From assembly GCA_000091205.1 (NCBI GenBank), contig AP006485.2: a stretch of 64,000 nucleotides of DNA; one strand, 5' to 3'. This document shows, in pieces, positions 1-58,012 of the stretch. Made by a program: the position numbers and the translations under genes. Position 1 is the first letter of the stretch. Each line of letters opens with the position of its first letter. This DNA is from Cyanidioschyzon merolae. Its lineage: Eukaryota. The notes below the pieces were generated by a model. It was not told where the DNA came from, searched no databases, and saw nothing but the letters and a program-made list of their open reading frames with translations.

Positions 1-911
1 TTGTCTGGTGTGTCTGGTGTAGGTGTTCGTGTCGCGCCCCGTTCGGGGTTCAGGTTGCTCTGGCCAACGGCTTGCTTCAGCGTATCCGGGAGTACAGTTG
101 CCGTCTCCCGACGACAAGTGATGAGTTTCAGTTCCACAATCAACGGATCCTCACTTATTTTTCGCAGTTCGTGTCGAATACCCGAACCAAAGAATCTATC
201 GATTCGATCCTCTACAGCTTGAAAGGCCTCAAACGGCGTCTCGCGGCATTCGAAAACGAGTGCAAGCCCGTATTCTTCACCCGGCTCGCGAGACTCTCGC
301 AGGCGAAGCAGCACTGGTGCCGGGTCGCCTCTCTTAATGACGCCCAGCACCCGAAGCGCGCCCGATAAATGCGCCTCGTCGCCATACCTATGGCGCGTGA
401 CATCACGAATGATCTGCTTGAGCGTCGTTGTCGCCTTTCGTTCCCGAAGGACTACCAGATCGTCCGTTGTCGAGATCGGCACAGGTTCGAGTTCTGCGTA
501 CCACAGTGCCAGACCGAGAAGCAAGATAGGCATCCCGTAAATGAGCGTCAGAGATGTTTCTGATGCCGAGCCTGCACTCTTGAAATACACATAGAGTGAA
601 TAGACGGTGAGCAGTGCACCGATCCCGGTCACGACCTTGGCTAGCGAGAAGCCGCGAAGCTCAAACGGGACCTGCGGCGGCGGCGTCGACGAGGGTTCCC
701 CTTGTGCACGCAGGTTTCGAATGCCTGCATGCTGGTGGCGCGTATGGCGACCCCCGACAACCGTCTGACGAAACAAAGGTGCATAATGCTTGCCCTGGCG
801 ACTACGGCATCGGAACCCGATCGCAAATCCTTCGCGTCTCACAGCCGAGCGCCTCGAGCTGCTACGCTGGTACGACGTTCCCTGGTGCGCAGGTACCACA
901 AAAAGCCACAT
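1..911 (-). CDS. Partial CDS whose 3' end runs off the window start. Predicted membrane protein: basic/Ser-rich N-terminus, two TM helices, conserved-looking soluble C-terminal domain. Function unknown.
   Basis: Hand translation of the minus strand from the ATG (rc of 909-911, in-frame TAA just upstream at rc 921-923) runs >300 codons to position 1 without a stop. It reads MWLFVVPAHQ...RHTRHQHAGIRNLRAQGEPSSTPPPQVPFELRGFSLAKVVTGIGALLTVYSLYVYF...LTLIYGMPILLLGLALWYAELEPVPISTTDD...ALRVLGVIKRGDPAPVLLRLRESREPGEEYGLALVFECRETPFEAFQAVEDRIDRFFGSGIRHELRK... It is absent from the ORF track because it has no stop inside the window. Frame traced by eye only. Confidence 0.45.
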   Translation of the reverse strand, partial: MWLFVVPAHQGTSYQRSSSRRSAVRREGFAIGFRCRSRQGKHYAPLFRQTVVGGRHTRHQHAGIRNLRAQGEPSSTPPPQVPFELRGFSLAKVVTGIGALLTVYSLYVYFKSAGSASETSLTLIYGMPILLLGLALWYAELEPVPISTTDDLVVLRERKATTTLKQIIRDVTRHRYGDEAHLSGALRVLGVIKRGDPAPVLLRLRESREPGEEYGLALVFECRETPFEAFQAVEDRIDRFFGSGIRHELRKISEDPLIVELKLITCRRETATVLPDTLKQAVGQSNLNPERGATRTPTPDTPD

Positions 912-1515
912 GCCAAGCGTTTAGAGGACTTTGCTTCTTTCGTTTTGAGTGCTACGAACCACGACCCCGTGACTTGGGTGTTTTTATTCAAGTGGTAAAG
1001 CGCACTGCTACACAAACTCGTGCTCCACACTGGAACTCGGTGTGTACAACGCTACACAAGTACGTGGGGTGTTCTGGCTGCTTTCCGGTAACAGAGCGGT
1101 GCGCGTCGTTTGCGCAACCAATTTTGTAGCGCAGAAAGTACTATCTGGAACACACGACACAAGTGCTCGGGTACACACACACCAAAGACGTACACGCAAC
1201 GAGCGCCAACGTGCTCGCAACACCACACAAACTGGTCGCTGGACTGCAGGCTCCGTGGCGTTCACAAGGTGCCTCGCGCCGCACCACACAAGGCACGCGC
1301 CGCATCGCTCGGGGTCGATCGCGAACACACCCGTGTGTCCCTTTTAGGTATGTTTATACCTACCAACTGCGCAGCGCCCACTGCAGCATGTCGCCTCGTC
1401 CATCGTTCCGTTCAGCGAAGCGTACGCAAATCCTGCTTGCTTTCGTCGTCAGCTGACCTCTTGACGTAATCTTGATTCTGGCCCGGCTATTCATTGGGTA
1501 CTGTCTTGTATTGGA

Positions 1516-4500
1516 ATGCGGACATATGTGAGGCGTTCGTTTGTGGCGGTGCAGCTTGCGCTTGGCTACTTTCTGACGACGCTGATGGTCGTGATCAACC
1601 CAACCCGGGTCTACATGGCGTGCTGGGCGCCAATTCAATTCGCACTATTGGCCGGTGTTGTCAGTGAGTTTGAATATGTGGGATCACTGCAGCAGGCGGC
1701 AAGCGCGGCTATCGTTGGTCCCTCGTTCGGGGCGACGCTGGCACTCATTATTCAGCTTGCTGCAGGGCACTTGCTTTGGCTTCGCATCATACTCAATGTG
1801 GTGTTTATGGCAATACTGGTGGCGCCTCGGCTCTGTCCTCCCGCCGTAGGCTCTGTGAGCCTTTCACTGATTGCGTTTGGCGTTGTGGAAAACTATTTGC
1901 AGCTGAGCCTGGACTCAGGACCCGGACACCACGCCTTCATGTACTCGCACTACATCCTTTCAACCTGCTTTGCAGCCTTTGTGGGATTTTTTGTTGCTTT
2001 GCTTGTGTTTCCTGTGTCCGTACGTAGCCTTTTTCATGACAGCGTCGAAAACGTGCTACGCGAGAGTGCTAAGCGCCTGAGTCGTTTGGCGTCGCTTCTC
2101 CTGGCTGATGTGTTCCAGGCGACTCAGATCGAGAATGAGTTGCAGGAGCGGCAGAAGGAACAGATCGCCAACACCTTCGATGGATACCATTCAGCCTCGC
2201 CACGAACCTCAGTGGAAATAATAATGGAGCAGCGCTTGTCTTCGTATGCTCGTATGGAGACGCTGGGCCGCAGTGAGTCGTCATTCAGTGCGGAGGCGAC
2301 GATTTTTGGCTTCGCGGAAGAGTCCGCGTTACTACAAGGAGGCTCGCTCTATCTCCATGGGAGCCTAGTGGCGTTGCAGCGATTGTTACCGCTAGGCGCC
2401 AACGAGCTCACGTACCCGGCACTCTTTTATCATGCGCCGATAACGGACTGGTCGAAAATCATCTACAAGTCACGAGACCTGGTCGCACGTATCGGCGGAC
2501 TCGAGAGCGTTATTCTGCATCGCCGTGGTACCGAGTACCGCGCGGTAGCGATGCACAGACTGTATCGAAGTGCCCTTGCAGATGTAACCAGATTATGGGC
2601 AAGGCTTGCGAGTGCATGCAATTTGCTCGGCTTGCTCGTTCGAGAGAAGGAGGTGCGTTGGTTCCACTGGCCGGAAAACTCACCCCATGCCCTTACGATA
2701 TTTCGCAACGAGAAGATTCGAAAGTACCTCGATGAGGTCATTGACGAGAAAGAAATCGAGGCGCTCTGGCGGCGCGTCACAGAGAGTGGCCTCAGTGGCT
2801 ATCAGGAGTTTTGGCGTGATATGGCGATTGCAACACACGTCGAGGACTTTAACCGCGAAGTCGATGTGACCAAGCTCGTCCGCGTCTCGGCGATTGTGCC
2901 CGTCGAGTCGGTACGTGTTGCCTGGTTCAGCACCGTGCTAGTGCATCGGGTTCTCGACTCTGTCTACGAGTTGCGCGAATCCGTGTATCAGTTATTGGAA
3001 CGACAGGCGCCGATGAGCCGGCAATCGTCGCCCTGGTGGCACTGGGCGCTGAACCGTCTCCGAGATGCCAGTTGGAATGTGTTTATGGCGGTCACGTTCT
3101 CGACTCGTGCGATGTATAGTTTCTGGAGCGACGTCCTCCGTAATGTGCTGCAGTACCGCGCTGCGGACTATCGACGGTTCTGGAAAAATAATCAATGGCA
3201 ACTCATATTTCTCATCAAGTACTATATTATCAGCACTGCTGCGATCATTACTGTGGTTTGTATTCCGGCGTCGTCGAATATTCGACAACAATGGGAGCCG
3301 ATTCTCGGGTACCTGTCGGTGGTGGTGTCCGCTCGACCGACAACGGAATCGGCTGTGAGTGTGGCGCTCTCCCGAGCAGCCGGGGGCATCGTTGGTGCGG
3401 CTCTCGGCTACCTGGTGCTGGTGAAACCCGCCCTAGCTGTGAACGCTTTTTTTGTGGATGGTATTACGGTTGCGATTGTTTTCGTCATGTTTTACTGCAA
3501 CCTTGTCGATTCCATGAAATGGCTACAGTACACAGCTGGCATTGCTATTTTCATCTTCACCGTGGTCTGCATGTGCCAGTACAGTGCGCCGGTCGATCAC
3601 GCTGTCTGGCAAGCCGCTGTAGGCGCAATGGTATGCACTGCGATAGGGGTTGGCGTGATCATCCTGTTCACAACGGCCCTGTCACCTCGTATGGCGAGTC
3701 GTGAATCACGCCGCACCCTTCTCCGCGGATTTGCTGCCAGCGTCGACGGTGCGATTGCATGCTGGGAGGAGAACCTCCGTCGCCACAACTGCGACGAGTT
3801 TCTGGATCGCTTTCATCAGGCGCTCCATAATATCGAGGCAGCGCCAGCCAATCCGGCCGTTGAAACGACCACCGAAGAACGAGACAAGGAGGCGGAGGAG
3901 GTGCAAAACGTGCGTGTACACGCACACCCGTGGCAAGAGACCATGGCTATCAACAAGCACATTGAGGCGCTGGCGACAAGTGTAGCGATATTGAGCAACG
4001 CCCTGTCACCGAGTTTCGGCGGCGTGAATCAGTTCGCCTTGTGGAAAAGAGGCTTCTTTCGACCACCACAGTTTATCGTTGACGGGAACGTTGCGCTTTG
4101 TGTTGTGCTGCTACGACTGGAGGTGCTCAATAGTATAGTGAACCGTCCACCCATTTACGGTGTGCGCTTCTCTGGGGCGATGTATCGCCTTTTCCTGCTG
4201 GCACTCGAGCCTGAATTCAGTGCAATTTTCCGCTCGTTGATTGAGCTCACAGACGCCCTGCGAGGATGCCTCGAATCTCGCGGTATTCTGGAGGATCTCT
4301 TCGGATCCGCCGAAGCGCTGCATAGTGATGCAATGCGCCGTTTCGAGAACCGGAAATGGCTTTTGCAGCTGTGCCTTTCGCGAAAACGAGCCGCTCAAAT
4401 GCAATCCAAGCTGAACGCTTACGAAGGGAATGGCGTCGAAGTTGCCGACGGAGGTCAGGGCTTCTGCATCATGGAGCCCAGTGTGGGTTTGGCACTGCTC

Positions 4501-6855: not shown

Positions 6856-9003
6856 CGATCCCCGGTTGCCGGACGTCATGGATATCGCGACACCTGCAAA
6901 TCAAGCGGATGCAGCCATTGAGCGGTAAGGAAAGCGCGCGAAGCTGCTCAAGTTTTCCAGCACCCGTTATCACCGACATTCGGGTATATCAGACGCCAAC
7001 AGGCATGCCAGTGCGCTCAACGACAGCATCAGAATCCATGGCGGTGCACTGAGAACCGTATCGATGAGCCCAGGATACCTCGCAAAAGCTCGGTTTCAGC
7101 GAAAGCTCACGAGCGTCCCCCGGTCGCATGGAGTCAATCTTTGGCAAGAGTGCGTGGCAGACTTTTGTCGGAATCGCCAACGACCTCCGTTGTACGTAGG
7201 CAAGAATCGTTCCTGCGCTAACGCGTTCAATGAGTCTCAAAATGAACTGTGCAAAGCATCGTGTCGTTTGGGGATTCTCTCGGGCGATAGACGTGCTGGA
7301 GCGCGCACTAGCTGCACTCCTGCTTATTCAAACAGAGCTTTCCATGAAACAGGAATCGACTTTGTCTGACGCCCGTTGATGCTCTAAAGACAACATACAC
7401 CAAAGAGAAACGCGTTGTCCGCTGGAACTCGTAATGAAGAAGCGCGTGCACAAGACGGTGTGCAATATACACTTCGAGTGTCAGATATCGAGACAGTTCA
7501 AGGTCCGAAGCATTTCGTCGTGAGAGGCTACCAGCATCCATGAGAACGTGCACTTTCTGAACTGAACCATCAAAACCTCGCTCCAGGTCAGCAACGTTTG
7601 TCGTGCTTCCGCCGGGTCCAAGGCCTATGTTTCGAACGGAGATTCGAGGGAATTCTAGGCCAGTCAGCTTATGTATTGTGCTGCGACGCTGAGGATTTCG
7701 ATGAAGAAAAACCAGTAGCCAGGAGAGACGGCAGGGTATGCTCGCCCGCACCAAGGCACTGGTTTGATACAGTTCAGCAGTCCACAAAGCCTGGTGCACC
7801 ATGTTTAACCATTCAATGGGAGCGACTCCCCCGTTCGGCTATTCAGCAACGATCATGCAGTTCCATAACTCGATATGACTGAGTGTACGTGATAAGCGAC
7901 GTCAACGCTGTCACGGATGCTTCGTACTCCTAGCACCTCGATACCACTGCTGTTCAGCCCAAAACCCGAGCGTCCACGGATCCGCTGACTCGCCAGACAT
8001 CGAGTGAGCACAGTTCGGATTATAGTGAGTTGCCCTCAACGATTTCAGATCGCGCTTGTGTAACCTAGTGTGTCTCCCGGGGGCCCGTCCTGGCCCTATG
8101 CACCCCCAGCTGGTACACGAAGGCCTGCCACCAGCGTCGACCAAAGCGTTAGAGGAATCCGGCGTTGAGCGCGACCTCCGAACGCAGAGCGCTCCCGTCG
8201 CAGGTGAAGCCCCTTGATGCAGCTCCACGGAAAACTAGAAATGCTGGAGCGCTCCATGATCGGTGTACCTTAAGGACACCCTCATCCTATATCGACCAGC
8301 ACGTGGAGCCGGACGCGGTCATGCACCGCTGTAGGCTTTGACGCTGCGCGGTCGGTAACGCTGCTCGATGGGCGATGTGCTTGAGAGGCGCACCTCATGA
8401 CTGCTTGGTTGTGGCGACAACGACGATACAGCCTTGAGGTCATGCGACATTGACAGCTGCGCGCTGGTCAAACGAACAGGCATACATGTGTCGCTTGTTT
8501 GAGACGATTGTTCGTCCTAGTTGCGCACGATGTTCATAGAGCTGACGGATGCGTAGAACAACGAGAACGTCATCGAGCACTCGAATGCAACGAGGCATGG
8601 TTACCCTCTTCATCCAGTATCCAAGTGCTGGCAGGCGGCCCCAGGTGTCTGGTTTCTCAAGTGGTGTTCGCGCTCCTCGCATTGTCCAAAAAGATCCACA
8701 CGCGCCTCGTTGACGTTTCGATTTACCGCGATTTGGTTACTGGCTGACCATCCAGTCGATGCTCGTGAATTTATTGTCTGGGAAACTTGGCATTCATCAG
8801 GCGTAAAGAGCGAACACCTCGCGATGGAGTGAAGCACACGCGCGCGAAGCAAAGACTCGAAGATGCAAGCGCGTTGGAATGTAACGCTGCAAACCAGTCG
8901 AGCTTCCTCGCTCCGTCCGAGCACTGCTCTAGCTCGTTCCGCAAACAGGAAAATGCATGCACTCGTAGCGCTATCAGTGCCCATTTCCGTTCCAGAAAGA
9001 ACC

Positions 9004-17230: not shown

Positions 17231-18358
17231 TCACTGGAGGTACTCGAAGATACTGCGTAGCCGCGTACGCGTCACCAATCCGGTCTCAGCCATCGAAGTG
17301 ACGTCCATGGTCAGATCTAAAGGCCGCCGCAGACCGCTCTCCGCTGAAAGGCCGGGCGTGATTCGCCCGGCTGCCCGATGACGGTACTCGCTCCATCGTG
17401 TCGATAAGAGACGCTGGGCGAGCGCAAAGCGATTCGTTGTTTCCGGGCACGCCAGATGAATGACGGTGGCTGTATCACCATCCATCGTGACGCGCTCGCA
17501 TCGAATAGCAGTGGCGACCTCGACAAGTGCCTCGGCCAAGTCATTCGACCATGACATATTTCGAATCTCATCGGTGAAGAGAACCAACGGCTTTTCGTGC
17601 GTTTCGATGAGAGCCGAGCGCAGAAACGCGATCGCTTTTCCATCTTCATGCGGTTGCATACCGAGCGTTAGAATAAGTGATGTACGGGCAATAACAAGAT
17701 CAGGGTGGTGTATGTTTTGCAAGGTATCCTCCATTTCTACTTTGTAGTGACCATACGGATTGAGCGGTCGGCGTGGGGCATCCGTGGTATACGGCGGGTG
17801 CGGCGGCACGCCATCGAACACCTGGTCCGTCGATATCGCGACAAAGCGGCACGAACTGCGCTCCGCACCCTCTACCATGCCTGCGAGCTTGGTTGCCTCT
17901 GCTGCGTAGAGAACATGGTCAACGATTCCAGAGCGAATGTCGTCTCCGCCTGGGCCTGCGGCACCACCGTGTTTCGGAACAGCGCAAAAAACCACCGTGA
18001 GCAACGGTCCGATTTCCGTGCTTGCTCGCTGAATCAGGTCTGAAGTAGCACGTCTATCAGCGGTGTCTAGGTAAAACCATCGTACGGAAGGAGCTTTTGA
18101 TCCAACCGGTGTGCACACTGACGGTCTTCGAGTGCGGTAGGTCGCCCAGACGGCACGAACGCCACTTACAGTTGGCGTTTCCGCAGCTTCGGCTGCCGCC
18201 CGCACAAGAGCGGAGCCGAGTTCACCGCTACCGCCGATCACGAGCAGACCACGCTGGCTCTCAGCGCTGCCATCATATGGGCGATAAACAGCACGAGCTC
18301 GCGAACCGTTCATACCAGAAACCGCAAGCGTGCTGCTGCTGCTGCTGCTGCGGGTCAA
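17231..18358 (-). CDS. NAD(P)-dependent reductase of the RmlD substrate-binding (dTDP-4-dehydrorhamnose reductase / MAT2B-like) family
   Basis: N-terminal Rossmann motif VIGGSGELG. Motifs ISTDQVFDG and PLNPYGHYK match the RmlD/MAT2B Y-x3-K catalytic region. Confidence 0.55.
   Translation of the reverse strand: MTRSSSSSSTLAVSGMNGSRARAVYRPYDGSAESQRGLLVIGGSGELGSALVRAAAEAAETPTVSGVRAVWATYRTRRPSVCTPVGSKAPSVRWFYLDTADRRATSDLIQRASTEIGPLLTVVFCAVPKHGGAAGPGGDDIRSGIVDHVLYAAEATKLAGMVEGAERSSCRFVAISTDQVFDGVPPHPPYTTDAPRRPLNPYGHYKVEMEDTLQNIHHPDLVIARTSLILTLGMQPHEDGKAIAFLRSALIETHEKPLVLFTDEIRNMSWSNDLAEALVEVATAIRCERVTMDGDTATVIHLACPETTNRFALAQRLLSTRWSEYRHRAAGRITPGLSAESGLRRPLDLTMDVTSMAETGLVTRTRLRSIFEYLQ
18331..18350. 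repeat. (CTG)6 trinucleotide repeat
   Basis: Read directly. Confidence 0.9.
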
Positions 18359-20216
18359 TGGGGCTTCGCTTGTGCGTTGCTGTTCGCGAGCGCTCGCATC
18401 AACGACGAGTGCTGTGCCAGGTGTCGCTAGTAATCGTGCTACCGGTGTTTTCTGGTGCGTGTAAACGCTCCTCAGCCTCCAGAAGGACTATACGTTGGTA
18501 TCTGCTCCACAGGCGCGCGACAGCTCCACCGCAGCCTCGCGATATCGTATGCGGTATCGACGGCAGCGATCGTGTCGGTGCCCAGGCGGCAACGCTCCGT
18601 AAACCTGCAGTACGCGCTCGACTGCACCGTGGTGTATTCGTCTTTGGCAATATTCTCTAACGACGAGGCATGTATCGATGTGGTGCAGGTGCCGTCAACC
18701 AGCGGGACACCTAACTCGCTGGGCAGCTCAACCAGTGCGTTCTCCATGCTCGCGACTCACCGATGCCCAGTGAGCCGACGCAGTTCGCAGACATCCCTCG
18801 GGTCCGGTCGTGCGTTTCAAACAAAAGTCACCGAACGATGCGCTGCTGTGCGTCGCGGGCGGTCAAGCGTAACGACGCGATGCCATGTGATGCGAAAGCA
18901 GTCGGAGGACGAGCTAGAGCCGGGTTGCGCTCGCCATGAAGATCCTCCGATATGCGAGGAATGTTTCCCAGGTCGTTGTAACGCACCGGATGCCTGTCTT
19001 CAATAGGAGAGTATTGGCCATGAGCAAATCCGTGCGACGGTCACGAAGAAACCGGCTCGATGTTTTGAGCTGGGCTCGAATCGATGCACATCGAGGGTTG
19101 CTCATGGTCTCGCATCAATGACGCCGAACTGACTTTCGGAAAGTGGCACTGACGTCCAACAGCGTCGCAAACTTTGCCCCCAGTGTAGCATGCGTAACAT
19201 CGAAAAGGTTTCTCCGCAAGCACGAATCACTCCCAGGGGCATTTCAACCGATTTTCCTGGAGTATCGCGAATGCCTTTCAAAAGTTGAAAGCAGTCGCCA
19301 GCAGTTTACAGAAGTGGCGAGTGACCCGCCCTGGACAGAACGTCTCCACCTGACGTGCAGGCGCCATCCAGATCATTTGGACCGGCTATCCACTACTGGT
19401 TTCAAATTCTCTTGTACAAATCCACTGTAAAAGGTTGCCGCACAAAAATCTGTCTCGTCAACTCCGAAAGTCTCTTCTCCATCACCGCGCATCTCGTTAT
19501 GTTGATTGCTGCGTTCAAGTCCTGGTTCACGAATTCCACACGTTTCTTGTCGTTGGTTTTACTTACTAATGCAAGTAGCCCGAACTTTCGCCCTTCTTTC
19601 TATTTGCTCTTCCGTCAGCGCTCCATACTTTGCTGTATCCTCAGGGCTCCGATGGCACTTTTGTATCTCGACCCTCTGGAGTCTACACACCGGTTCTTGG
19701 TGAATGTATGACGCTCGGAACTCATATATCGATATTGTGACAAAACGCCGTGCGCACGCCGTGTACGTTCTCGTCGTTGGAGCTGGCGTATATCCTTTTC
19801 TGGGTCATCCAGCGCCCTGCTCCGTACGCCATTATGAGTATTTGACTCTCGTCCTCCTGCAAGGCGCTCAACTGATTGAAAAGTTGGCGAATGCACGCTG
19901 CTTCCCACATTCCAAGTTCGAACGCAGACGAGCCCACTGGGGCTTTGTATACTCTTTCCACAGCGCGCCTCCCAATGAGCAGCGCGAAATTTCGTGAATT
20001 TCAGAACAGCTTGAAAGTCCGCCCCGCGGGTAGTCACCTGGCTGATCGCTTTCAGTTGCTCTCTCACTCCTGCATTCCATTTCTCAGTTTTCTTCCTCGC
20101 ATTCATTTTTCCCGATTCTCGGTTCTATCTAGCACTTGAGAGCGTTAACAGACGCACGTTTTTCTGACGAAAGTTAGCGTCAATGCCATCTTCCGCACGC
20201 TTGGGTACTGCAATGG

Positions 20217-21145
20217 TTATGATATTCGTGTTCCAAGGGTCCGCGCCAACGACCAAATCGTTCTCATGCACTCTCTGCGTCGCAAGGTCCGCCTCCTTCT
20301 TTTCTTCATGCTTCGCCACGCCAACGACAAGGTCGTTATCCTCCACTTACTTCGTCGCTGGATCCGCCTCCTTCTTTTCTTCAACCGCCGATAGTGTAGA
20401 CACAAGGTTACTCCATCAGTTTCGATCATCCCAGTGAATACCTTTTGTTTGCTCACTTTGAGACGTTTGAAATTGAAGATATTCTTCTTACTGTACGTCT
20501 CCCGGTTCTCACGGGTGAAGTCCTCCCTGCTAACATTGAACTCCGGACTGATCTCCCTCATGATGCCGTAAAGGACACCGGAGTCGATAGTCCCAAAATG
20601 TGACTTGATGTTGCACAACGGGACGACCTTGAAGCGCTTTCCCATCAGGGCAGCCTTCCGTCTCACCCATTCTTCATTTTCCCGCTGCTCAGCTCCTTTT
20701 CGGCCTTGCGTTCGAGCTCTCGGTCCAAAAACACGAAATATTGCAGGATGAGGCGATAGCACCTATCGTTATCTTTTTTCATGTCTGATACCTTTTCTTT
20801 TGTGTTGACGAGCCCCAAGACTGAACGATGCTCTTTCATAGTCGCATGGATTACAGAAGCTTCATTCGTTCGCTTTCGTGACGTCTTCTCGTCGACGAAT
20901 TCGATATCTTCTTCATTCTTACGATCGTTCCTGACGCCATTGATGATGGCCCATATTCCCTGGCGGACGAAGTCCGGGTAGGGTGCAATGATGGAGTGTT
21001 TCATGAAGCTTTTGAGGTTCGTAGTCATGAGGTTCTTCATGTTCGTGAGGTACATTCTCGCCTCGTATTCGTAAATATACCCATCATCATTGTACCGAGT
21101 ACCTTCGAAGCGGTATTCGTCGTGATTTTCGTGGACGGCATGCAC
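20217..21145 (-). pseudogene. Frameshift-split ORF inside an AT-rich island. N-terminal part at 20663-21145, C-terminal part at 20217-20762 in another frame. K/R-rich. Candidate decayed mobile-element or lineage-specific gene.
   Basis: Two overlapping minus-strand ORFs of 160 and 181 aa in different frames within a region of clearly lower GC than the flanks. Contains RRLKKRRRRIQRR basic stretches and a [17 protein letters not shown] motif. No family assignment possible. Confidence 0.3.
20241..20425. repeat. About 70-bp tandem duplication, roughly 2.5 copies, ending in ..tccgcctccttcttttcttca
   Basis: Units at 20241-20307 and 20313-20382 align with a few substitutions. A partial third copy follows. 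Confidence 0.8.
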
Positions 21146-22660
21146 TCACTCATTTTTCGTCGACGTTTTGCCCTGTACCAAGCATCAGGTGGCGAATGAA
21201 TGTCATAATGAAAAATTCCTTCATACCTCGACTGTTCCCGTGTGCGTCACTTCGTCGTACACCTCCTCCACCGAATGCATTAGCCCAGACGAGGCCTCTA
21301 TAATACTCATGGAGCACGAATCGACACGGTTTCTGATGGCCTCTTGGAACTTTTGGTTCTACGGATCCTTGATATATCCAAGAAGGCAGGCTTTCACTAC
21401 CATGTCGTCGTAGTGCAGTCTTTCATGCGGGAATTGACGTTGCGACTCCCCCGTTGTTTCTTCGTCTTTTCCAATTCTTCTTTTCTCAGTACTGTTTTTC
21501 GGTTTTCTCCATCAGCCGGCGACATCAGGCTTCCGGGTTCCTTTACTTCCACTTCCATGACTTTCCTTTTTTTGAAAACGAACACACTTTAAACGTTTCT
21601 GGTATAAACCGCGAAAAATAACTTGAATATACAAACGTGAAATTTGAAAAGTAATTGAAATGAAAAACTGTATTTTTAGACGTCTTCTGCGCCAGTACAA
21701 CTTGTAGGTTAGAGCAACAAGTCAACGAATGGCCAGGCTCGCGCTTCCCTTCATTGGCGAGATACACGTCGAGTCTCATGCCTGCCAGACAAGGCGGTGC
21801 CAGTTTTCGACCGTACTATATAGAAAACAGACCAGAGACTATCCACGAACTAGCAACGAGATAAGAATTTCTTTCGCCCTCTACGATTAACGTTACAAGA
21901 GGCAAAACTTGTTCCGCATTGCCAAAAATGTACCTTATGGGAGCAACGTCCCGTTATCCAAACGAGTCCTCCAGGCTCGAGCTCTCTGCGCTCCCAGTGA
22001 CGGGTGCTCTGGTGAGAGGCCTGAGCAACTCGTCCACAACGCAGTTTACGCTGGAACTAGGAGCAGGATGCTGCGTCAGGGCATCGTCCTGGTCGCAGTG
22101 GACTACTAGTAGATCCCTTCGCGCTTTCGCAAACAGTACGCCTGTCTGCGCAGCTTGCTGGCTCCCAGAACGATAACTAGCCGTGTTCGCGTATCAGATG
22201 TAGCGTTCCTCAAGCCGATGCCTTCAGTGGGACTGCCAACACAGTTCTGTCTTCGTGATGCATCTGAACCAACGGTAAAGGCGCAATCGCGGACGATCAT
22301 GCCGTGCGCACGACCCACGATAGAACGTACAATTCAACCAGTATGCCCGGGTCTACGTATGGGTAATGGAACTGAAAAGTAGGGCGTGGATCGATGGATG
22401 CTTTACTGCGCGCTGAAAACAACCAAAAAAGAAACGAGAAGAAAGTAGAGAAAAAGCGGACAGCCGAAGAGCGCCGGCCTATGTGAGATCGATTTGTCTA
22501 TTTAAGAAAAATCGACAGCCAGCAGCGACACATCGAGAGGCGTTGGACACGCGCGCCTTGCGAACCTCCGCAGACCTGCGCAGATACCGCACACAGACGC
22601 TTTCGCACGCGTATATGGATACGTTGCTGTGACCTGCGCTGTGCGCGACCTCGGGACCCG

Positions 22661-25174
22661 TTGACAGGCCACATAATGCGGACAGTTAGGGTACCGAAAA
22701 AGTCGACAGAGCGTATTCCAGTACTTGAATCGGTTGTTTTGAGATCGCTGTTCGAGTTTCGAGGAGCTGTAACGCCAGCTCGGCGCGAGGGGGTCACGCA
22801 GCGCTACGAGCACGCGTGCAAGCACCTGAAAGCGTTGCGCGAACGAGTGTCGGTCATCAGCTCTGCTCCGGACGTTGAACGAGCTGGTGATGCCGTCCAA
22901 GTCATTCGAGACTACTACCGGGCGTTGCGTTTTCTGGAGACGCGCTTTGTTTTCAGGCGTGCGGTTGCACCTGCGTCAGTGCGGCGAGGTCTACTACAGC
23001 GCCAGAACGGTACGAGTACGGGGCAACAGAAGACGGGCGCAGGACACGTAGACGCTCCTAATGTAACGCTAACTTTCACTTGGATGGATGCGTTTCAAAC
23101 TAGACAGCGCTGTTCGAGCTCTAGCACACAGCTGGAGAAAGCCGGTCTGCTATTCAATCTGGCGGTGTGCTATTGCACGCGGGCCCATGACCTGGTACTG
23201 CCGGAGCCGCTGACCGAGGCCGCACTCAGAGAAGCGTTACAAGGTTTTCAGTGTGCTGCTGGTCTTTTCGCACTCATTCAGCACATGTCGCTGGACAGTA
23301 TTGGAGCGGACCTCACTCAGGATCTGCACCAAACGTCGCTGGATACGCTGAAACTAGTCATGCTTGGCAATGCACAACTTTGCACCGTCGATTTCGCGAT
23401 TGCCGAGAATCGATCGAGTTCGACGGTGAGCTGCCTGGCAGGTGGTGCTGTCGAGCTGTACGGGCGGGCAGTAGCGAATGCCGGGACTCGTTACTTCCCC
23501 GCCGACTTTATCGTTGAATTAGAGCTGCTCCGAGATTACGCTGAGGCGGTTGCCATGCAGTACGCTGCAATGGAACTTGATGCAGACGGCACCGGGGATA
23601 TCCAACGGCTCATGGCGATGCAGGAGGAGGATTTAGTAGAAAGAGCGCGGCGGTATTCCGAAGCGGTCGTCATCGCGGAAAGGCTACTCAAGAGTGAGCT
23701 CGTCCGGCGCGATACACCGTTGCAACGACGCATCGAAGCTCTTCGCGATCGATGTCGTTCCGCCCGCGAGCGCTGTGAACGTGAAAATGCGGTTGTTTTT
23801 CAAGTCGATTTCAGCAAAAGACGCGCGGATGACAGAAATCGTCACTCAGCGCCGTCGCAACTGCGTAGACGCATCCTGGCAACGACACCTGATCTACGAG
23901 AACTGGCGGCGTCGCTGGGCGATGGCCAGGCAGCGGAACGCATGGCCGCCCTGAGTCCCGCTGCGTTTCTTCCGCCGAGTTCACCGCTCTTGGCCCTACA
24001 GAATCTGGTGCCACTCGAATTCATCCCAATGCGAAATGATTACGACAAACGGGTCCGCGCTCTGGTCGAGCGAGCAGTAGAGCGGCTGCGGGAAGCGAAT
24101 CGCGTTTCAGGCAGCCTGCGAAGAGAGCTGAATCTCGAAGCGATCCTCGCGAGTATTCCGAGAAAATTCTCTGACCTGCGCGAGACCGAGACACCGGAAG
24201 AACTTAACCGTGGAACGGTTGTGCGATTCAAGGAGTTGCACGCAGATCTCAACGCGGAAGAAGGTTCCGACCGACTCGCTTCAGAGCTGATCCGCCAAGC
24301 CAAGGAGAAAGTGCGGCGGGCGGAAATCCTTCTGAGCGCAGAGGCAGCGGAAGACGCGGAGTGGCGCGCTAAACTCCGAGGCCGTGCGCATCGGCCGGAA
24401 TCCGCGGAAGCCCAACAGTCATACCACGCCGAACTGCATCTTATCCAAATTGAGCTGCAAGCTTGCACAGCCGCGAGGCGCAGTGTGAGCACGCGAGCCC
24501 AACATTGTCAGGAGTCGAGTGTTCGCGACGCCTTGTCCATTTTGGAACAAAACGGATCCAACGGGGAGACCACCAGTGCCGCCACTAGTACTGCAACCAT
24601 CACCACCAGTGCCCCGGCTCAGTGTGGGTCCATTTTCGACCATCGGTCGCGGGTAATCACCACTGAGCACCCAGTGGCTGTGCAGTTGCACCATGCTGCA
24701 GCGCGACTGGTTGACATGGAGACACGCAGGGACGCGGTCGCGCGCGAACTAGAACAGCAGCGCTTTTCGGACGACTTTGGGTGCACCCTGCTCGAAGATC
24801 CGCTGCCGGATGATGATTTCCACGCAAGCGCAACCGAAATTATCGAGCGAATCATCGAACGGCGTTATGGGGCCCTCATTCGACGCGCGGAAGATCTCCT
24901 AGGGAGCGTGGCTTCCAGTGCGCGCCACGAACTCATCAAGGCGGTCGAAGATCTCAAAAGTCTGCGGGCGGAGAGGGATCGCGAGCTGGCCGCAGCTGCA
25001 GATTTGGCCGGGCGGGTGCATCGAGCCATTGAGGATATGCAGGCGCTCATTCAGGAAAGAAACCGCGTGCGAGAGCGCTGTTCCCGTCTTCTCGAACGAT
25101 CCGAAGCATTACTCGGGAGCGTCGAGGGGTTCTGTGAAGCGCGTCGACTTGAAGTTTCGCTAGGGTCGTCATGA
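22661..25174 (+). CDS. BRO1 domain protein (ALIX/PDCD6IP/Bro1-like, ESCRT-associated) with a long coiled-coil V-domain-like C-terminus
   Basis: Matches Bro1-domain blocks: VTLTFTWMDAF, LFNLAVCYCTRA, ALQGFQCAAGLFALIQ and TLKLVMLGNAQLCTVDFAIAE. Followed by about 450 aa of heptad-rich helical sequence. Confidence 0.75.
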   Translation: MTGHIMRTVRVPKKSTERIPVLESVVLRSLFEFRGAVTPARREGVTQRYEHACKHLKALRERVSVISSAPDVERAGDAVQVIRDYYRALRFLETRFVFRRAVAPASVRRGLLQRQNGTSTGQQKTGAGHVDAPNVTLTFTWMDAFQTRQRCSSSSTQLEKAGLLFNLAVCYCTRAHDLVLPEPLTEAALREALQGFQCAAGLFALIQHMSLDSIGADLTQDLHQTSLDTLKLVMLGNAQLCTVDFAIAENRSSSTVSCLAGGAVELYGRAVANAGTRYFPADFIVELELLRDYAEAVAMQYAAMELDADGTGDIQRLMAMQEEDLVERARRYSEAVVIAERLLKSELVRRDTPLQRRIEALRDRCRSARERCERENAVVFQVDFSKRRADDRNRHSAPSQLRRRILATTPDLRELAASLGDGQAAERMAALSPAAFLPPSSPLLALQNLVPLEFIPMRNDYDKRVRALVERAVERLREANRVSGSLRRELNLEAILASIPRKFSDLRETETPEELNRGTVVRFKELHADLNAEEGSDRLASELIRQAKEKVRRAEILLSAEAAEDAEWRAKLRGRAHRPESAEAQQSYHAELHLIQIELQACTAARRSVSTRAQHCQESSVRDALSILEQNGSNGETTSAATSTATITTSAPAQCGSIFDHRSRVITTEHPVAVQLHHAAARLVDMETRRDAVARELEQQRFSDDFGCTLLEDPLPDDDFHASATEIIERIIERRYGALIRRAEDLLGSVASSARHELIKAVEDLKSLRAERDRELAAAADLAGRVHRAIEDMQALIQERNRVRERCSRLLERSEALLGSVEGFCEARRLEVSLGSS

Positions 25175-26627: not shown

Positions 26628-27195
26628 ATGGTTTTGAAAGCACATGAACTTCGAGGAAAGTCCAGACAAGAGTTGGAGCAGCAGTTACAAGCGCTGAAGA
26701 CGGAACTTCAGCAGCTGCGTGTGCTGCAGGTAAGCGGTGGCGGCGCTGGCAAGCTCGGGAAGATGTAAGTTGTTGTTCGCCTGCTGTGCGTGTGTTTATG
26801 TAGATGTTCGTGATGAACACTAGAGCTTTGATAGGGACATTTGAGGGTGCAGCAAGGGATTCTTGCGGGCGCTCTTTGAAACTTGCTCTTTCTGATGGGG
26901 CGCGGCTCGGGAACCAGAACTAACCACTTGTAGTAAGGAGGTGCGCAAGTCTATTGCTAGGGTATTGACGGTTATGTCTCAGGCGAGGAGAAAAGCGTTG
27001 CGAGAAGAATACATGAATAAGAAGTTTAAGCCGTTGGATCTGCGGCCGAAGCTTACGCGAGCGATGCGGCGGAAGTTGTCGAAGACGGACGCCGCACGCA
27101 AGACCCTCCGTCAACAGAAGCGCGAGCAGAACTTTCCAAAACGGCGTTTTGCGATCTTGCCCGTACCGCGTGATTCTCTCATGCAATCAGAATAA
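26628..27195 (+). CDS. RPL35: 60S ribosomal protein uL29 (L35). Two exons: exon 1 at 26628-26764, GT-AG intron at 26765-26933, exon 2 at 26934-27195.
   Basis: Exon 1 reads [45 protein letters not shown]. Donor is GTAAGT at 26765 and acceptor is ccacttgtAG at 26933. Splicing restores ..[39 protein letters not shown].., collinear with eukaryotic L35. The unspliced frame hits a stop at 26766. Confidence 0.85.
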
Positions 27196-27268
27196 GTGGT
27201 CTACGGAACCAGTGAAAACGGCGTTTTGCGATCTTGCCGGTACTGCGTGATCCTCGCATGTTCTCAGA
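27138..27268. repeat. Tandem duplication (period about 77 bp) of the last about 54 bp of the RPL35 coding sequence including its stop codon
   Basis: Copy 1 at 27138-27195 encodes [18 protein letters not shown]. Copy 2 at 27215-27271 encodes [18 protein letters not shown] in its own frame. Confidence 0.8.
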
Positions 27269-27350
27269 CTAGTTCGTCCACTGACCTGACCGCATCGATA
27301 CGTGACGAGGTGCGAGCGCGTTACCGTCCACAACGATGCCTGCCTGCATG

Positions 27351-38393: not shown

Positions 38394-39835
38394 ACTGAGA
38401 TACCAGGCAAACCTGTGATATGACGTAGGTGCTCTGTCTCGGGCGTGCACCTCAATGTTTGGGACGCGTACCATTGTGCTCGATACCTGCCTTTGGGGTT
38501 TGTTCTGCGATCGCGTCCTTTGCCTATCTCTTATGCTCTGCCTTACGTATGCCGATGCCGCCTATACTCCCAGCTCTGTTGTCGGCAATCGGCAGTTACT
38601 GATGACAGCGATAGAGTCCTGGTTTGGGCGCTTTCGGAAGTAATCGACGCATTCCATGCTCAGGCGGAAGTTGCGATCTATGATTCGCTTGCCATGTTCC
38701 TGTTCTTTGCGTACTGCCTCGGTACACGCCTGGCAGCTGTGCCTCTTGGCTCTGCACAGCGGTTCGCGTATGTCGAGCGCACCCGTCTCCCCGAATGCTG
38801 GCCTGTGGCGCGTCAACGCTTGCACGATTGCTCGGTACATGTTCTCGACGGTACACACAAGTCGCCCAGCGATGCGTTGTGCGGTTTTCGCGCCCAGTCT
38901 CGGGCGCCACGATCAACAGCTTCTTCTCTGCGATCAGGCTGGCGAGCACTCTACTCAATAAACGTGCAAGCGTACGCTGTTCGATGGGATCGTGTATCGG
39001 TGGAATGCAGAGCGTCCCATGATGAATCAAGCACTTGAAGCGAAATCCAGGTTGGAGAACGAGTCGGGAGCTTCTGATGCGTCTACGCTCCCTTTGTACC
39101 AAGCTGTGACGCACGCCCTACTGCGAGCGATCACTTGTATGAAGGAAGGTCGCGTGCAATACCCTTCTCCATGCAAAAAAAATAAGAGACGGGAGCCTTC
39201 GCGAGCATATCCCATGTGAGTTATCATGCTGCTGTCGAGTGTTGCTCCGTCGATAGTCAGAGAGGGCGTAGGATTGAAATTTCGATCGGAATCGAGTGTT
39301 CGATTGCGTGAGAAGATCCGTGACCTTCGGTTTGGGCTCGTGAAAAAGTCGTCAACCGACGACGTCGAGTACGTTTGCTCGTCAATCCACTTGGACGATT
39401 TGCAGTGCCCACGAGTAACCCTGAAGTAGAAAGATCGAAATCTTGAAGAATGAATGCATTCAGCGAACGATGCACAAGAAAGGATAAGAATATCGGCTTG
39501 TACGTATGAACTGGTTCATGATATCGGTTATTTTACGGTACTGGAGTCTTGGGTGTCGCAAACAACTCGAACAGCAAAGCGCCGAACAAGCCATTCCGAA
39601 TGAACCACTGATGATCCTAGAACTACTTATGAATCCTGAATCCCCTATGACTGCACTTTGAATGTCGATGCGGTACATCTCAAAGTAGCACGAGAAAAAT
39701 CTAAAGCCAGAAACAGAGGCCTCTAGTTTCCTGTTCTATGCAAATCTACCATGCGTGTCGACGATACTTGTTCTCTCCTCTCGAACATCGGAAGGTTTTT
39801 CTGCGGACAAGTGAAAAGCTTCGGTTGCCGAATCA

Positions 39836-40879: not shown

Positions 40880-41090
40880 TCGATACTCGAAGTGTACCCG
40901 ACTCTGATGCATCTACGGATGAATCGTTCTCTCGCAGCACCGGCATTGTATGGAGCGGGGAACAGAAAACCAGCACTGTACGCGACTCCGATGCATCTAC
41001 GGATGAATCGTTCTCTCGCAGCACCGGCATTGTATGGAGCGAGGAACAGAAAACCAGCACTGTACGCGACTCCGTCGTCTCGTACATGGC
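40880..41090. repeat. 84-bp tandem repeat, about 2.3 copies, immediately 3' of the THUMPD1 stop
   Basis: Units start at 40899 and 40983, with a partial third at 41067, and are >90% identical. An overlapping +strand ORF (40837-41118) would encode the 28-aa repeat DSDASTDESFSRSTGIVWSGEQKTSTVR twice. Confidence 0.85.
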
Positions 41091-44000
41091 GCCGTCTTTC
41101 CCCGCATCATACTTGTAGAGCTCTTAGTGGAGACGAATATTGCGCTGTGCATGCGAATGCACGAATCCTCGGACAGTGAATCGCTCTCGGTACATCGCGT
41201 TCGTGCCTGATGATGCCTTGCATTCTGCGAAGGGCGTTCCAAGCGCAACGTTCACGATGCCGCGGCGTTTCACCAGCTGCACTGGAGGATGCTCTCGTGC
41301 AGCACTTGCTCGCACCTGCTTAACGACTAGAGACGCGTAAGCGCGAAGAACATATCGGGGGCGTCACGTTTTCCTCTGGAGCATGGAGATGGATTTCCTC
41401 CTTTTCGAATTCGGGTCAATACAACGTGTGCATGCACTGGAACCCATTGGATGATTGGATGTTGAAGGCACAGCATCCAGGAATGGAACGATCCCCAAGA
41501 TGCTCATCGTCATCTCTGAATCGAATTCGAAGCGGATGTACTCAGGGTTTCAGGGGCACGTACGGCTCGTGACGGCTGCGGTAACTTGGGCAACCCAAAA
41601 TGGTTTGGATAGTGACGTCCTCGTCATACGTCCTCGATAGAGTGCACGCTCGGAAGCGTCGGATGCATCTCGATAGCACTGGGGTTCGATGAAGCAAACC
41701 TCAGCTGATCCTTTCTGAGACTCGCCGTCCTGGATCCGCTGCGTTTCTTGTACGAAGTATCAGACTGAGACCCGGGCGTTTTGATCTCCAGAATATCGAT
41801 TCTGCAGCGTTGCAATGGCACATCAACTTTACCTCGATGCTGGTGCATCCGTTTGCGCTGCTGACATCCGCGACGTCCGACTCTGACGATTGCCAAGGCC
41901 AGCGTGCGGAGATACGATCGCTGTCGACCTGGCGGATGCTTAGGGAATGCATCTGATGTATGGATATTTTGGAGCAGCCTTGATCGCTTGGATCACGGCA
42001 ATAGACTCTGAAATATTGAATCGTGGAGCACTAGTATCGTCTACGCTTTTCGAAGGGAAATCGTTCGCGGTGTGCATAGAGAATCCGTTCCAGCCCTGCT
42101 GGATGGCTGAAACACCCCATGCGAGCGCCTCGCTCCTGGCGAGGATCCCATGTCCCGTTCCATGGGAACTGATGGTTTTGCATCCGTATTATGCCGTGCT
42201 TCAGCGAAATAGCCACACTGAGTATGAAACGATTCCTTCGAAAGTTCACTTGATTCAAAGACGACGTACGCACGGGAAGCTCGAGACATTTTTCCCGACG
42301 CTGATAGGGGCATTCGAGTCTCGCTTGAGAGAGCGCTTGGGCGTATGGTTGCTGGTTGAGCTTCACCAAACCAAGTGTCTCAGATTCGATGACCTAATCA
42401 TGTGATGTTCGATCAGCGCACCGTACTTGACCTTGTGTATACGACTCTGTTTCACACTGTTCTTCTCGATTGGTTTCGTCGTCCAGCTATGCGTATGATA
42501 CGTACCTGCCGTCCTGAGTGCATTGATGGGAATCGTGCAGAATCGATTCCTGCTTGCGTTGTCCGCGCTCGTCGACGAGGCAAGACCGCAGCCCTGACGC
42601 GCCATGAAACGCTCAGCATCGTGGGGTACTCGCGAACGACGAGACTGGTCAGGTGTTTGTTCTTGAAAATCCTTGAACAAGTTGGCGAATGCAGGCATCC
42701 CGTCTTTATACAAACGAAACCGTCGGTGATCCCAGCGCGGTCTCGAGTACTCGTAATCGAGATTGTTTGCTCGATCCATTAGGACGTTTGTGTACTCTCT
42801 ACATGAAGCGTAGAAAGCATCCTCTTCAGTGGATTGGGTACTCCGAGTGCAGAGAAGCGCGCGGACGCCACCATTCTAAACGTTTGCATGCATCCTGGCG
42901 TCCAGCATGCCCGACTCTCGATCATACCGATGCCTAGAAAACGTGGGTACCTCCATCCGCTTTCCATTAAGGCCGTCGGCTCCGCCCTCTTAATTTAGAA
43001 GCGCACTGACGGCGGTGATGTGTTTGAATACGGAAACCACGCACACTAGATCGTCTAGCTCTTCACCTATCTTGAGCGATCGACCGTGAGCTTCGTTACT
43101 CGACTCGCGCCAGGTTTCCGTGGAGTGCTTCCACACGGATGTTCACTCGGTCGCTATCGACGCTGTGAATTTCTTTCGTTTTCATCCTTACAGACGAGAG
43201 ACGTTGGGCGAGCTCCGTCGATTCTCTACTCCGCGACGTTGGAGTGAAGTAGGACTGCTAGTAGAGACAAGTCGAAGCGTTCTGAGAAGGCTATCCAGCA
43301 CAATACCCATGTGCCTACGGCGACATCGTGAGCTTTCAGCTCAGTTTTGTTTCGCCCCTGATGCGATGTATAGCAGGAGATCGAAATCTCGATGCAATGC
43401 GCTGTATAGATCGTCGACGAATTGCCTGTAGGATACGTCTTGTCCTGGACAGTGCGAGGTGGACTGCAATCCTCCTTCACTTCAGTCATAATGAAGTACT
43501 CTGATGGTTGCGGAACATCAAAAGGAACAAGTAGATGTGTTCCGTGCCAAAAACAGGTATATTCAAAGAGTGGTTGCGGTCAACAGTAGAGAATGACCGG
43601 TTGATCACCCTAGGGAAAGCAAAACCGTCAAATGTAGTCGCCACGGACGTCCCTGTTCCTCAACAGCATGTTCGTGTGGTCGTGAAGACACCGGGATACA
43701 GTCGCGAAAAAGTCCTAGATTATGCATGGCCATCTTGCACCGAAATCGCAACGACAGCCTTCCTGGAGCGTCGCTATAGGTATGAAGCACAGTGACTTTG
43801 ATTTGTTTTTTTTTCTGTGGGTGAGACTTCCTTTCGAAGATATGGTCGGAGCGTATGCCGGCATTCGCGGAACAGGGCGCCCATTGTATGTAAATTCGAT
43901 TTAGATGAGAACGAGGATATCACGATCAGTTCGAGTTGCAGTGGATTCACTCTGCGGCCTCAGATTCGCTCGAGGAGAAAGCTCGTACAACGACACGAAC

Positions 44001-56317: not shown

Positions 56318-58012
56318 CTCCAGTCGCTCGAAGCGTCCGAACTGTGCACCCGCTCAGCTGCAAGTACCTGAACTTGCCGGCTGTTAGGAATCAAGCGTCC
56401 CCTCGCGAAGGCGACGGGCACGCGCCAGCGTGCGGCCTCGCGCCCACGTACGCCGGGAGGCCGCCCGCCGCCGCCGCATCACCGGGGCGGGATCGCCATC
56501 GCACCCGGACCTGTCGAAGCATTTGCGGGTACGCTCGTGCCGATGAACATGGAACACTGCACTGCATGCTGTTTCCCTGATTTTCAGTATTTGCGAGGTT
56601 TTTATTCGATGTCCAGTTTTGGTGTATGAAGTGCAGCAGTAAGCGTGCGCAGACACACAAGTCGTTGTATGAATCTCGGACGCAATTTTGATGTGGAATC
56701 CTCGCCGCGTTGCAGATGCAGTTTGCTCTGTTACCGGATTCAGGATAATTTGCAATGCGCTCGAACAAGGACTTGTAAATGAATCGAGTACCTCTTCCAA
56801 AGCATATGTGTGAACATCGATTATTTACTTGTTGTTAGGTGTAGCATGCTTAAATCCCCCATGCTTTAAGTTTTTCCAAGCATTTTGTCGCTAGGCAACT
56901 CGTCGACGTCCGTGATGACATGTCAACAAGCTGATGCCGAATTTTCACAGAGCTTATCGTGTTCAATAATCGATTCTGTTCGTAAGACAAATCCACTTTT
57001 CTTTGTTGCCATTGATGAAATGGCATACCTCTGCATAATGATACCTTTCATGGAATATGCTCCCAGACGCCCCGATGTCTTATGTTCGCATGGAAAGGAG
57101 CCTTCGGATTGGATTTCATTTGTGGCAGTGATTGCTTCCAGTGGAGTTCGCATCACCGCTTTGCAGGAATGGAGCGCAAACAGATCGAAATGTCTCGACG
57201 TGTTCTCAAGGCTGGATTTGTCTTTTGGTGCTTGTTTCATCATGGACAACATCGCGTTCCACGTATGCTCCATCTATTGGGGAAGTGTGCGCTTGCATGC
57301 GCAGCGGACGGCGTAATCGCCGCAAAAAGACGCAATGATGAAGCCACTGATGGCGGAGTGCAGCACCGGACGCGGAAACGGAGGAGTGCATCGAGGCGAG
57401 CCCCTGCAACTGTCAAGGGCGTTTATCGAATGGTGGTGCAAGCGTTCGCAGGCCAGAGAACGGCGCTAAGAGCAGAATGAGGTGTGATTCAGGTTTGAGA
57501 ACTCCTGACGACTGCCAAATGTAACCCTTGCCAGGGGTGCACAGAGGCTTGATCTAAATTGGATGAAGATAGTACGTGAAACGTAAATTCCTATTTCCGC
57601 CTGTGCATAAATTGGGTGAACAACATCTGGAAGCAGCGAAATTTTGCCTTTGACGCTGCCTTGATTATCCTTCGACCGCTGGTGACGGAACTGTAAAGAA
57701 GCGAGAGACCGGCGTCGTTCAAGTCTGTGATCAGAGGACGGATAAGGGAGCAGTCGCAGAATGTCTCGCATATGCTGGTATAGATGGTATTGGAAAGAAA
57801 AGGGAAACCTCAGCGTATAGGGGCCAATCAGTGGATCTGCTCTATTTCATACCGACATGGATGTAGTAGGGCGATGCAAGAATTGCCACGAGTGCTGGCC
57901 TTGCAAAAGAAAATAGGAATAGAAGCCGCGGTGTCCAAGTCTATTCCGCCATAACATACCATTCGACAGACGCTATGTACTCGTGAATACGGGCGCTCTC
58001 TGTATTCCACAT

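Follow-up and report, generated by a model that had tools for sequence, protein, structure and literature searches.

The 64,000-nt stretch of the red alga Cyanidioschyzon merolae that was analysed here (the window, throughout) has the gene content of an intron-poor eukaryote, with ~55% GC and organelle-type genes such as a fused GlyRS alpha-beta and EngA. Within it, a divergent intergenic region lies between an open reading frame (ORF) for an RmlD-like epimerase (17231–18358, minus strand) and one for a BRO1/ALIX protein (22661–25174, plus strand). This region holds the element that is the subject of our analysis, which runs on the minus strand over ~19268–22511 and is almost certainly one old, inactivated copy of CMe-1A, a ~3.2-kb interspersed repeat of C. 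merolae with a Fanzor1 gene inside.

An earlier note on this DNA had described an AT-rich island at 19400–21850 and taken it for a candidate decayed mobile element. That interpretation was borne out: the element is an interspersed repeat with sharp ends and 269 relatives in metagenomes, and is 80–81% identical to CMe-1A. The GC drop is also real, as seen in a sliding-window plot in which GC falls to 0.44–0.52 at ~19.2–22.0 kb compared with 0.55–0.61 on either side, but the boundaries of the island had been drawn ~130 bp and ~660 bp short of the ~19268–22511 mapped here. Direct comparison gives a GC content of 48.8% for the window element, 52.3% for the CMe-1A consensus and 56–57% for the flanks. 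Since the consensus is already low and the window copy lower still, the low GC is partly intrinsic to the family and partly a result of decay. A long A/T run at 21590–21700, cited as an example of the island's composition, is present as well, but it is the element's own leader upstream of the ATG at 21558 and is found in the consensus too.

Assignment to CMe-1A comes from comparison with the published Repbase consensus (3169 bp), the sequence of which was taken from the supplement of PMC3627910. Nucleotides 64–3168 of the consensus align to window positions 22404–19273 with 80.4% identity, and a global alignment of the window element with the consensus gives 81.1% identity, or 19% divergence. 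Because this identity of ~80% is colinear and extends over nearly the full length, which is the usual level for membership of a transposable element (TE) family, we place the element in CMe-1A. Taken with the GC level and gene content of the window, this match also points to C. merolae, or a very close relative, as the host. Fanzor1 elements have been described in many eukaryotes, CMe-1A among them (PMC3627910). Bao and Jurka (2013) estimated ~150 copies of CMe-1A, each ~80% identical to a ~3-kb consensus, and their table gives a consensus of 3169 bp and a protein of 734 aa, with CMe-1 listed as Fanzor1 (PMC3627910). The same paper describes the element as being without terminal inverted repeats, leaves its target-site duplication undetermined, and reports that its first 635 bp are common to a shorter element, TE-N2_CMe (PMC3627910).

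The extent of the window copy was mapped with the help of copies elsewhere. The 269 relatives came from a metagenome scan with the family alignment, after which 80 loci were retrieved, and a set of 82 related loci (L001–L082) was used for blastn and family comparisons. When the window from 15 to 27 kb was compared with all of these loci by blastn, homology of 71–78% was confined to the interval from ~19267 through ~22400–22460, and the flanks within the same segment showed no homology to the 82 loci outside the element. Moreover, different host genes flank the related copies at each locus. Alignment of 3’ ends places one boundary at ~19268 (...CTTTTGAAAGGCATTCG / CGATACTCC), with an uncertainty of ~5 nt, and alignment of 5’ ends places the other at ~22511 (TGCTGGCTGTCGA / TTTTTCTTAAATAGACAAATCG), with an uncertainty of ~5 nt upstream and up to ~15 nt downstream. 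Homology stops sharply at both aligned ends, and we therefore take the whole CMe-1A-type element, as delimited by blastn coverage, end alignments and the consensus alignment, to be ~3.24 kb long (19268–22511, minus strand).

Upstream of the Fanzor1 gene, a non-coding 5’ region (21559–22511, minus strand) matches consensus nt 1–905 and includes an AT-rich leader at ~21560–21800; it contains short ORFs only, with no Pfam match. The other ORFs of the element are all shorter than 90 aa, none of them matching a protein family, and in Pfam scans of its ORFs the element was found to encode no transposase. Terminal inverted repeats and a target-site duplication, which the earlier note had proposed as features that might mark the ends, were both absent at the refined ends. 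Local alignment of the two ends of the window copy scored 7, compared with 7.1 ± 1.3 in shuffles, and no target-site duplication was convincing, a shared 4-nt TCGC being at chance level.

The flanks of independent copies (for example L049:2957–2996 and L018:3647–3686) are biased in composition. Their 5’ flank is a T-run, often after (C/T)GAT, and their 3’ flank is G/T-rich and A-poor, with roughly (GTN)n over ~13 nt. In the flanks of the window copy (22512–22530 and 19240–19267) the 5’ T-run is present and the 3’ (GTN)n pattern is absent. Such biased flanks mean either that the element is 10–15 nt longer at each end than the Repbase consensus or that there is a target-site preference, possibly a target-adjacent motif (TAM). 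Head-to-tail pairs of CMe-1A-type copies, with ~45 bp between the 3’ end of one and the 5’ end of the next, were seen at L045:3500–3700 and also in L036 and L082.

The Fanzor1 (CMe-1) gene of the window copy is a pseudogene (19332–21558, minus strand), delineated by three-frame translation, codon-aware comparison and tblastn. Three-frame translation of the minus strand allows one protein to be traced across many frame changes and stops, from the ATG at 21558 to ~19332, and tblastn of CMe-1 against the window covers residues 1–734. Two overlapping minus-strand ORFs reported in the earlier note, at 20663–21145 and 20217–20762, are present exactly as described there. They had been explained by a single frameshift breaking one gene, but comparison of the coding region with the consensus revealed at least 11 frameshifting indels spread over 2.2 kb and, after frame correction, four in-frame stops, at consensus codons 67, 138, 469 and 721. 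With at least 11 frameshifts and four stop codons, the window copy cannot make protein. A codon-aware comparison with the 734-aa CMe-1 gave 70% amino-acid identity, and the codon differences from the consensus comprise 210 nonsynonymous and 93 synonymous changes. These differences look close to neutral, and the gene is a long-dead pseudogene, a fossil.

The identity of the encoded protein emerged from its relatives. A Pfam scan of eight raw ORF fragments and of the stitched 643-aa protein yielded nothing usable, and phmmer with the stitched protein alone found no match among PDB sequences. At the same time, the stitched protein matches 65 JGI metagenome proteins, with E values down to 5e-218 and 51–60% identity, and the intact relatives among these share the motifs GADPGNTN, DEFRTS and FVNRDFNAAINI. 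A profile built from 12 family members produced a single match in the PDB, to SpuFz1 (8gkh, the Fanzor1 of Spizellomyces punctatus), with E = 4.9e-12. In this profile alignment the D, E and D of the family motifs are paired with the DPN, DEY and NRD motifs of SpuFz1, the catalytic residues of which are D383, E541 and D606 (PMC10432273). The family residues (D484, E656 and D725, in the order RuvC-I, II, III) are nearly invariant in the family alignment. Because the profile matches SpuFz1 with an aligned RuvC triad, we assign the gene to Fanzor1 and not to a transposase or integrase; by homology, the element’s single gene encodes a eukaryotic relative of TnpB in which the RuvC nuclease is split.

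All three catalytic RuvC residues are still present in the window pseudogene. RuvC-I reads GADPWNTN (family GADPGNTN; 20224–20247, minus strand), with the catalytic Asp kept and aligned to IDPN (D383/N385) of SpuFz1. RuvC-II reads YEFRAS (family DEFRTS; 19709–19726, minus strand), with the catalytic Glu kept and aligned to LDEYKTS (E541). RuvC-III reads FVNQDLNAAINI (family FVNRDFNAAINI; 19498–19533, minus strand), where the catalytic Asp is again kept and aligns to NRDM (D606). The Cas12f1-like_TNB domain (PF07282), the zinc ribbon of TnpB, which is situated between RuvC-II and RuvC-III, was recognised in a distant relative, P0065, which passes with 37.4 bits against a cut-off of 26.3, while P0064 (13.7 bits), P0001 (12.1 bits) and consensus CMe-1 (11 bits) score under that cut-off. 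In the zinc-ribbon segment the family has a His-His...Cys...Cys arrangement, not two CxxC pairs. A caveat to the assignment is that the AlphaFold2 model of the intact P0001, made with a 12-sequence alignment, was of low confidence (pLDDT 38.3, pTM 0.24), too poor for a fold comparison.

Immediately upstream of RuvC-I, the pseudogene has two copies of a 75-bp (25-aa) coding repeat, KHEEKKEADxATQxVxxNDLVVG (20241–20383, minus strand). Tandem Repeats Finder reports a 75-bp period with 1.9 copies and 81% matches at 20244–20383, and self-blastn pairs 20241–20308 with 20316–20383 at 81% identity. A tandem duplication does exist here, as had been noticed before, but its unit is 75 bp and not 70 bp, and the array ends at 20383 and does not fill 20241–20425. 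The 25-aa unit, KHEEKKEADPATQEVQENDFVVG, is located in the linker immediately before RuvC-I, and its copy number varies from one in consensus CMe-1 to two in the window copy and in P0002–P0004 and four in P0001. The repeat also accounts for the Lys/Arg-rich product that the earlier note had described: the stretch RRLKKRRRRIQRRSKWR... arises when the 75-bp repeat is translated in the wrong frame, and the family frame reads EEKKEADPATK.VEDNDLVVG.

A 17-residue motif, taken previously as reminiscent of the catalytic strand of a transposase or integrase, is indeed encoded at 20391–20441 (minus strand), but it lies upstream of the catalytic aspartate of RuvC-I (GADPGNTN) and is not that strand. In the family alignment this segment is a conserved strand pair in which F352, T353, T358, D359, G360 and H366 are invariant or nearly so. 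It aligns to FEGSITTDGASVSV of SpuFz1, and an 11-residue stretch of it to FEGSITTDGAS. Its position next to SpuFz1 Y345 suggests that the strand pair is probably part of the WED domain and not a catalytic strand.

Conservation among copies is also seen at the 3’ end of the element. The last ~135 nt show 78% mean column identity among 42 distinct copies, and we delineate a conserved 3’ terminal block from this 42-copy alignment at 19268–19400 (minus strand), as a candidate omega-RNA scaffold. The block shares the last codons of the consensus ORF and extends ~65 nt beyond the stop, to the element end. It finishes in a terminal hairpin (GCTTTCAACTTTTGAAAGGC; 19273–19292, minus strand), 5 nt short of the 3’ terminus. 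In 41 of the 42 copies the last 36 nt form a hairpin of 7 bp or more (median z = -2.4), and at least three different terminal stem sequences occur among the copies, for example AACGUUUUUC/GAAAGACGUU and GGCGUCGUUCGA/UCGAACGGCGUU. Per-sequence folds of the block showed a recurring architecture. In a hand-drawn structure with six helices, 82.6% of cells are paired, compared with 41–60% when the 3’ partners are slid by 1–3 columns.

Characterised Fanzor proteins bind an omega-RNA that is made from the 3’ end of the element encoding them, as is the case for SpuFz1, where the flank beyond that end serves as the guide (PMC10432273); this sequence just outside the 3’ end directs the cutting of matching DNA beside a short TAM. 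The conserved 3’ block of CMe-1A would, by analogy, fit this omega-RNA arrangement. In intact family members, the hairpin-ended block would then be the RNA scaffold, and the flank beyond the position equivalent to ~19268 would be the guide. At the same time, an end hairpin that forms in DNA and is used in transposition would fit the 3’ arrangement equally well. Several observations weigh against an RNA scaffold. RNAalifold on the 3’ block returned almost no consensus structure, only a 5-bp helix, partly because the terminal hairpins of the subfamilies are out of register in the alignment; the hand-drawn structure and the per-sequence folds were used in its place. Covariation in the hand-drawn structure is modest, with 12 pairs showing two-sided changes compared with 7.8 in shuffles, a number reached by 10 of 500 shuffles. 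Moreover, the block is in part protein-coding in the reading frame of the consensus. A search of Rfam with the 3’ block matched no family.

The 3’ block is the best-preserved non-coding part of the window copy; it scores 128.6 bits against the family model (E = 6e-38), and its predicted folding energy is -50.2 kcal/mol (z = -2.4). This degree of preservation bears on one alternative, namely that the protein gene is dead while the locus is a candidate RNA gene, with the 3’ block producing an omega-RNA, the adjoining flank CGATACTCCAGG... acting as its guide, and an intact copy elsewhere providing Fanzor1 in trans. The window copy retains the predicted helices and the terminal hairpin, and a few intact ORFs do exist in related genomes. 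On the other hand, the block is here as diverged from the consensus as other parts of the element are, the z-score of its fold is no lower than -2.4, and the published CMe-1 protein is a consensus reconstruction. We consider a surviving RNA gene improbable, and prefer to read the whole locus, 3’ block included, as an inactivated CMe-1A copy.

RuvC nucleases and DDE transposases share an RNase H-like fold, and it could be argued that the element is a decayed classical DNA transposon whose ORF once encoded a DDE transposase or an integrase, the identity that the earlier note had suggested. The element is multi-copy and its product is basic in places. Yet Pfam scans with the fragments, with the stitched protein, with intact relatives and with the consensus protein matched no DDE transposase or tyrosine/serine integrase family, the one relative of solved structure is a Fanzor1, the Lys/Arg-rich stretch results from reading out of frame, and the ends have neither terminal inverted repeats nor a target-site duplication. 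We regard this explanation as very unlikely; what matched was a Fanzor1/TnpB-like RuvC nuclease. In characterised relatives, proteins of the Fanzor/TnpB type are RNA-guided endonucleases and not the enzymes that move the element.

There is equally little chance that the deviant composition marks a segment that was acquired horizontally or integrated from a giant virus. The GC content is ~8 points under that of the flanks, and Fanzors also occur in large DNA viruses (PMC3627910), but the block is only 3.2 kb long with one gene, it belongs to a high-copy interspersed repeat with different host genes around each locus, and its low GC is that of the family consensus (52%) plus decay. Composition and gene content ruled out a prophage or viral island, and also a trypanosomatid origin, which had come to mind because of the strand-switch layout. 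Finally, a lineage-specific single-copy gene broken only by a sequencing or assembly frameshift can be dismissed: the two ORFs do overlap as one frameshift would give, but the lesions number at least 11 frameshifting indels and four stops across 2.2 kb, the copy is 19% diverged from the family consensus, and hundreds of related copies exist elsewhere, mostly broken too.

Most of the CMe-1A family is in a similar state. A stop-free stretch of at least 640 aa was found in only 3 of the 82 related loci, L001, L004 and L025, so that the family appears overwhelmingly fossil, with very few possibly active copies. These three loci carry a full-length stop-free Fanzor1 ORF (L001:10001–12259, L004:3261–5516, and L025); L001 and L004 probably represent one locus present in more than one sample, and contigs of several samples carry the 752-aa protein that they encode, P0001, with 99% identity. 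It is possible, though on balance doubtful, that P0001 and the L025 protein are active Fanzor1 nucleases that use the ~135-nt 3’ block as their omega-RNA, by analogy with characterised Fanzors. If so, the conserved flanks would reflect a TAM and a preferred target (a 5’ T-run after (C/T)GAT and an A-poor (GTN)n on the 3’ side), a Fanzor1 system whose guide scaffold is defined would be available from a red alga, and a guide RNA might still come even from the dead copy in the window.

Four further Fanzor-like or CMe-1A-like relics were found within the window besides the main element. Three are more diverged Fanzor1-like relics, at 42297–43022 (minus strand), 44200–44687 (plus strand) and 6857–7378 (plus strand), with 32–38% amino-acid identity to parts of CMe-1; part of the second (44342–44687) also has 68.6% nucleotide identity to consensus nt 2737–3084. 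These three may be older CMe-1A copies or members of a second Fanzor family. The fourth, at 59575–59825 (plus strand), has 67% identity to the initial ~250 nt of CMe-1A, is not followed by a Fanzor gene and, as far as its sequence goes, fits the non-autonomous TE-N2_CMe, which shares the 5’ module (PMC3627910).

Repeats of other kinds are also present in the window. A short interspersed repeat that we could not classify occurs at 57131–57326 and 63056–63249 (72.6% identical to each other), and also at 38962–39241 and 62584–62639; it matches non-Fanzor parts of metagenome loci L001 and L002 as well. Tandem duplications outside the element lie at 40893–41074 and 27138–27284, with units of 84 bp (97%) and 77 bp (81%), respectively. 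A (TGC)7 microsatellite at 18331–18351 encodes, on the minus strand, a stretch of serines close to the N-terminal end of the RmlD-like protein.

The window element is an ordinary member of an already catalogued family. The 2013 publication covered the family together with its Fanzor1 gene, the number of copies and the absence of terminal repeats; the RNA-guided nuclease activity of Fanzors was published in 2023 (Saito et al., PMC10432273). For annotation, the practical consequence is that 19268–22511 is best masked as a CMe-1A/Fanzor1 relic instead of being annotated as one or two hypothetical genes, and at least four other relics in the window call for the same treatment. What is mildly new concerns the family more than this dead locus: a delineated, hairpin-ended 3’ block as a candidate guide-RNA scaffold, a 25-aa repeat of variable copy number before RuvC-I, and the biased flanks of the copies.

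Compared with CMe-1A as published, the window copy shows the divergence expected from the ~80% consensus identity of genomic copies (PMC3627910), a size close to that of the consensus (3.24 kb versus 3.17 kb), the one ORF that the consensus also has (70% amino-acid identity once frame-corrected), and the same lack of terminal inverted repeats. It is unlike the consensus in being a pseudogene, in having two 25-aa repeat units instead of one, with ~16 codons missing just before the units, and in its first ~100 nt, which represent a 5’ sub-variant with an extra T/C-rich insertion that is common to L004, L064 and L066. Comparison of the copies with the consensus suggests that the element may reach ~10–15 nt past both consensus ends.

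RNA-guided, TAM-dependent DNA cleavage has been demonstrated for SpuFz1, GtFz1, NlovFz2 and MmeFz2 (PMC10432273). SpuFz1 is the sole solved structure matched by the family profile, over the WED–RuvC half, where the three RuvC motifs align. Sequence similarity to it is low, the N-terminal half hardly aligns, and the CMe-1 family differs in carrying the variable 25-aa repeat before RuvC-I and in having only two cysteines and two histidines where relatives have a CxxC-type zinc ribbon. At the same time, the CMe-1A family may resemble SpuFz1 at its 3’ end, where it has a conserved and apparently structured terminal block.

A more distant comparison can be made with the bacterial insertion sequences IS200/IS605 and IS607 that carry TnpB. 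Unlike these, CMe-1A has no TnpA, neither of the Y1 HUH type nor of the serine recombinase type, and it resides in a eukaryotic host, with a length of ~3.2 kb and a 950-nt non-coding 5’ module. Like IS200/IS605 and IS607, CMe-1A does without terminal inverted repeats or a target-site duplication and has a hairpin at its end, and its accessory nuclease is homologous to theirs, as reflected in the match of P0065 to PF07282.

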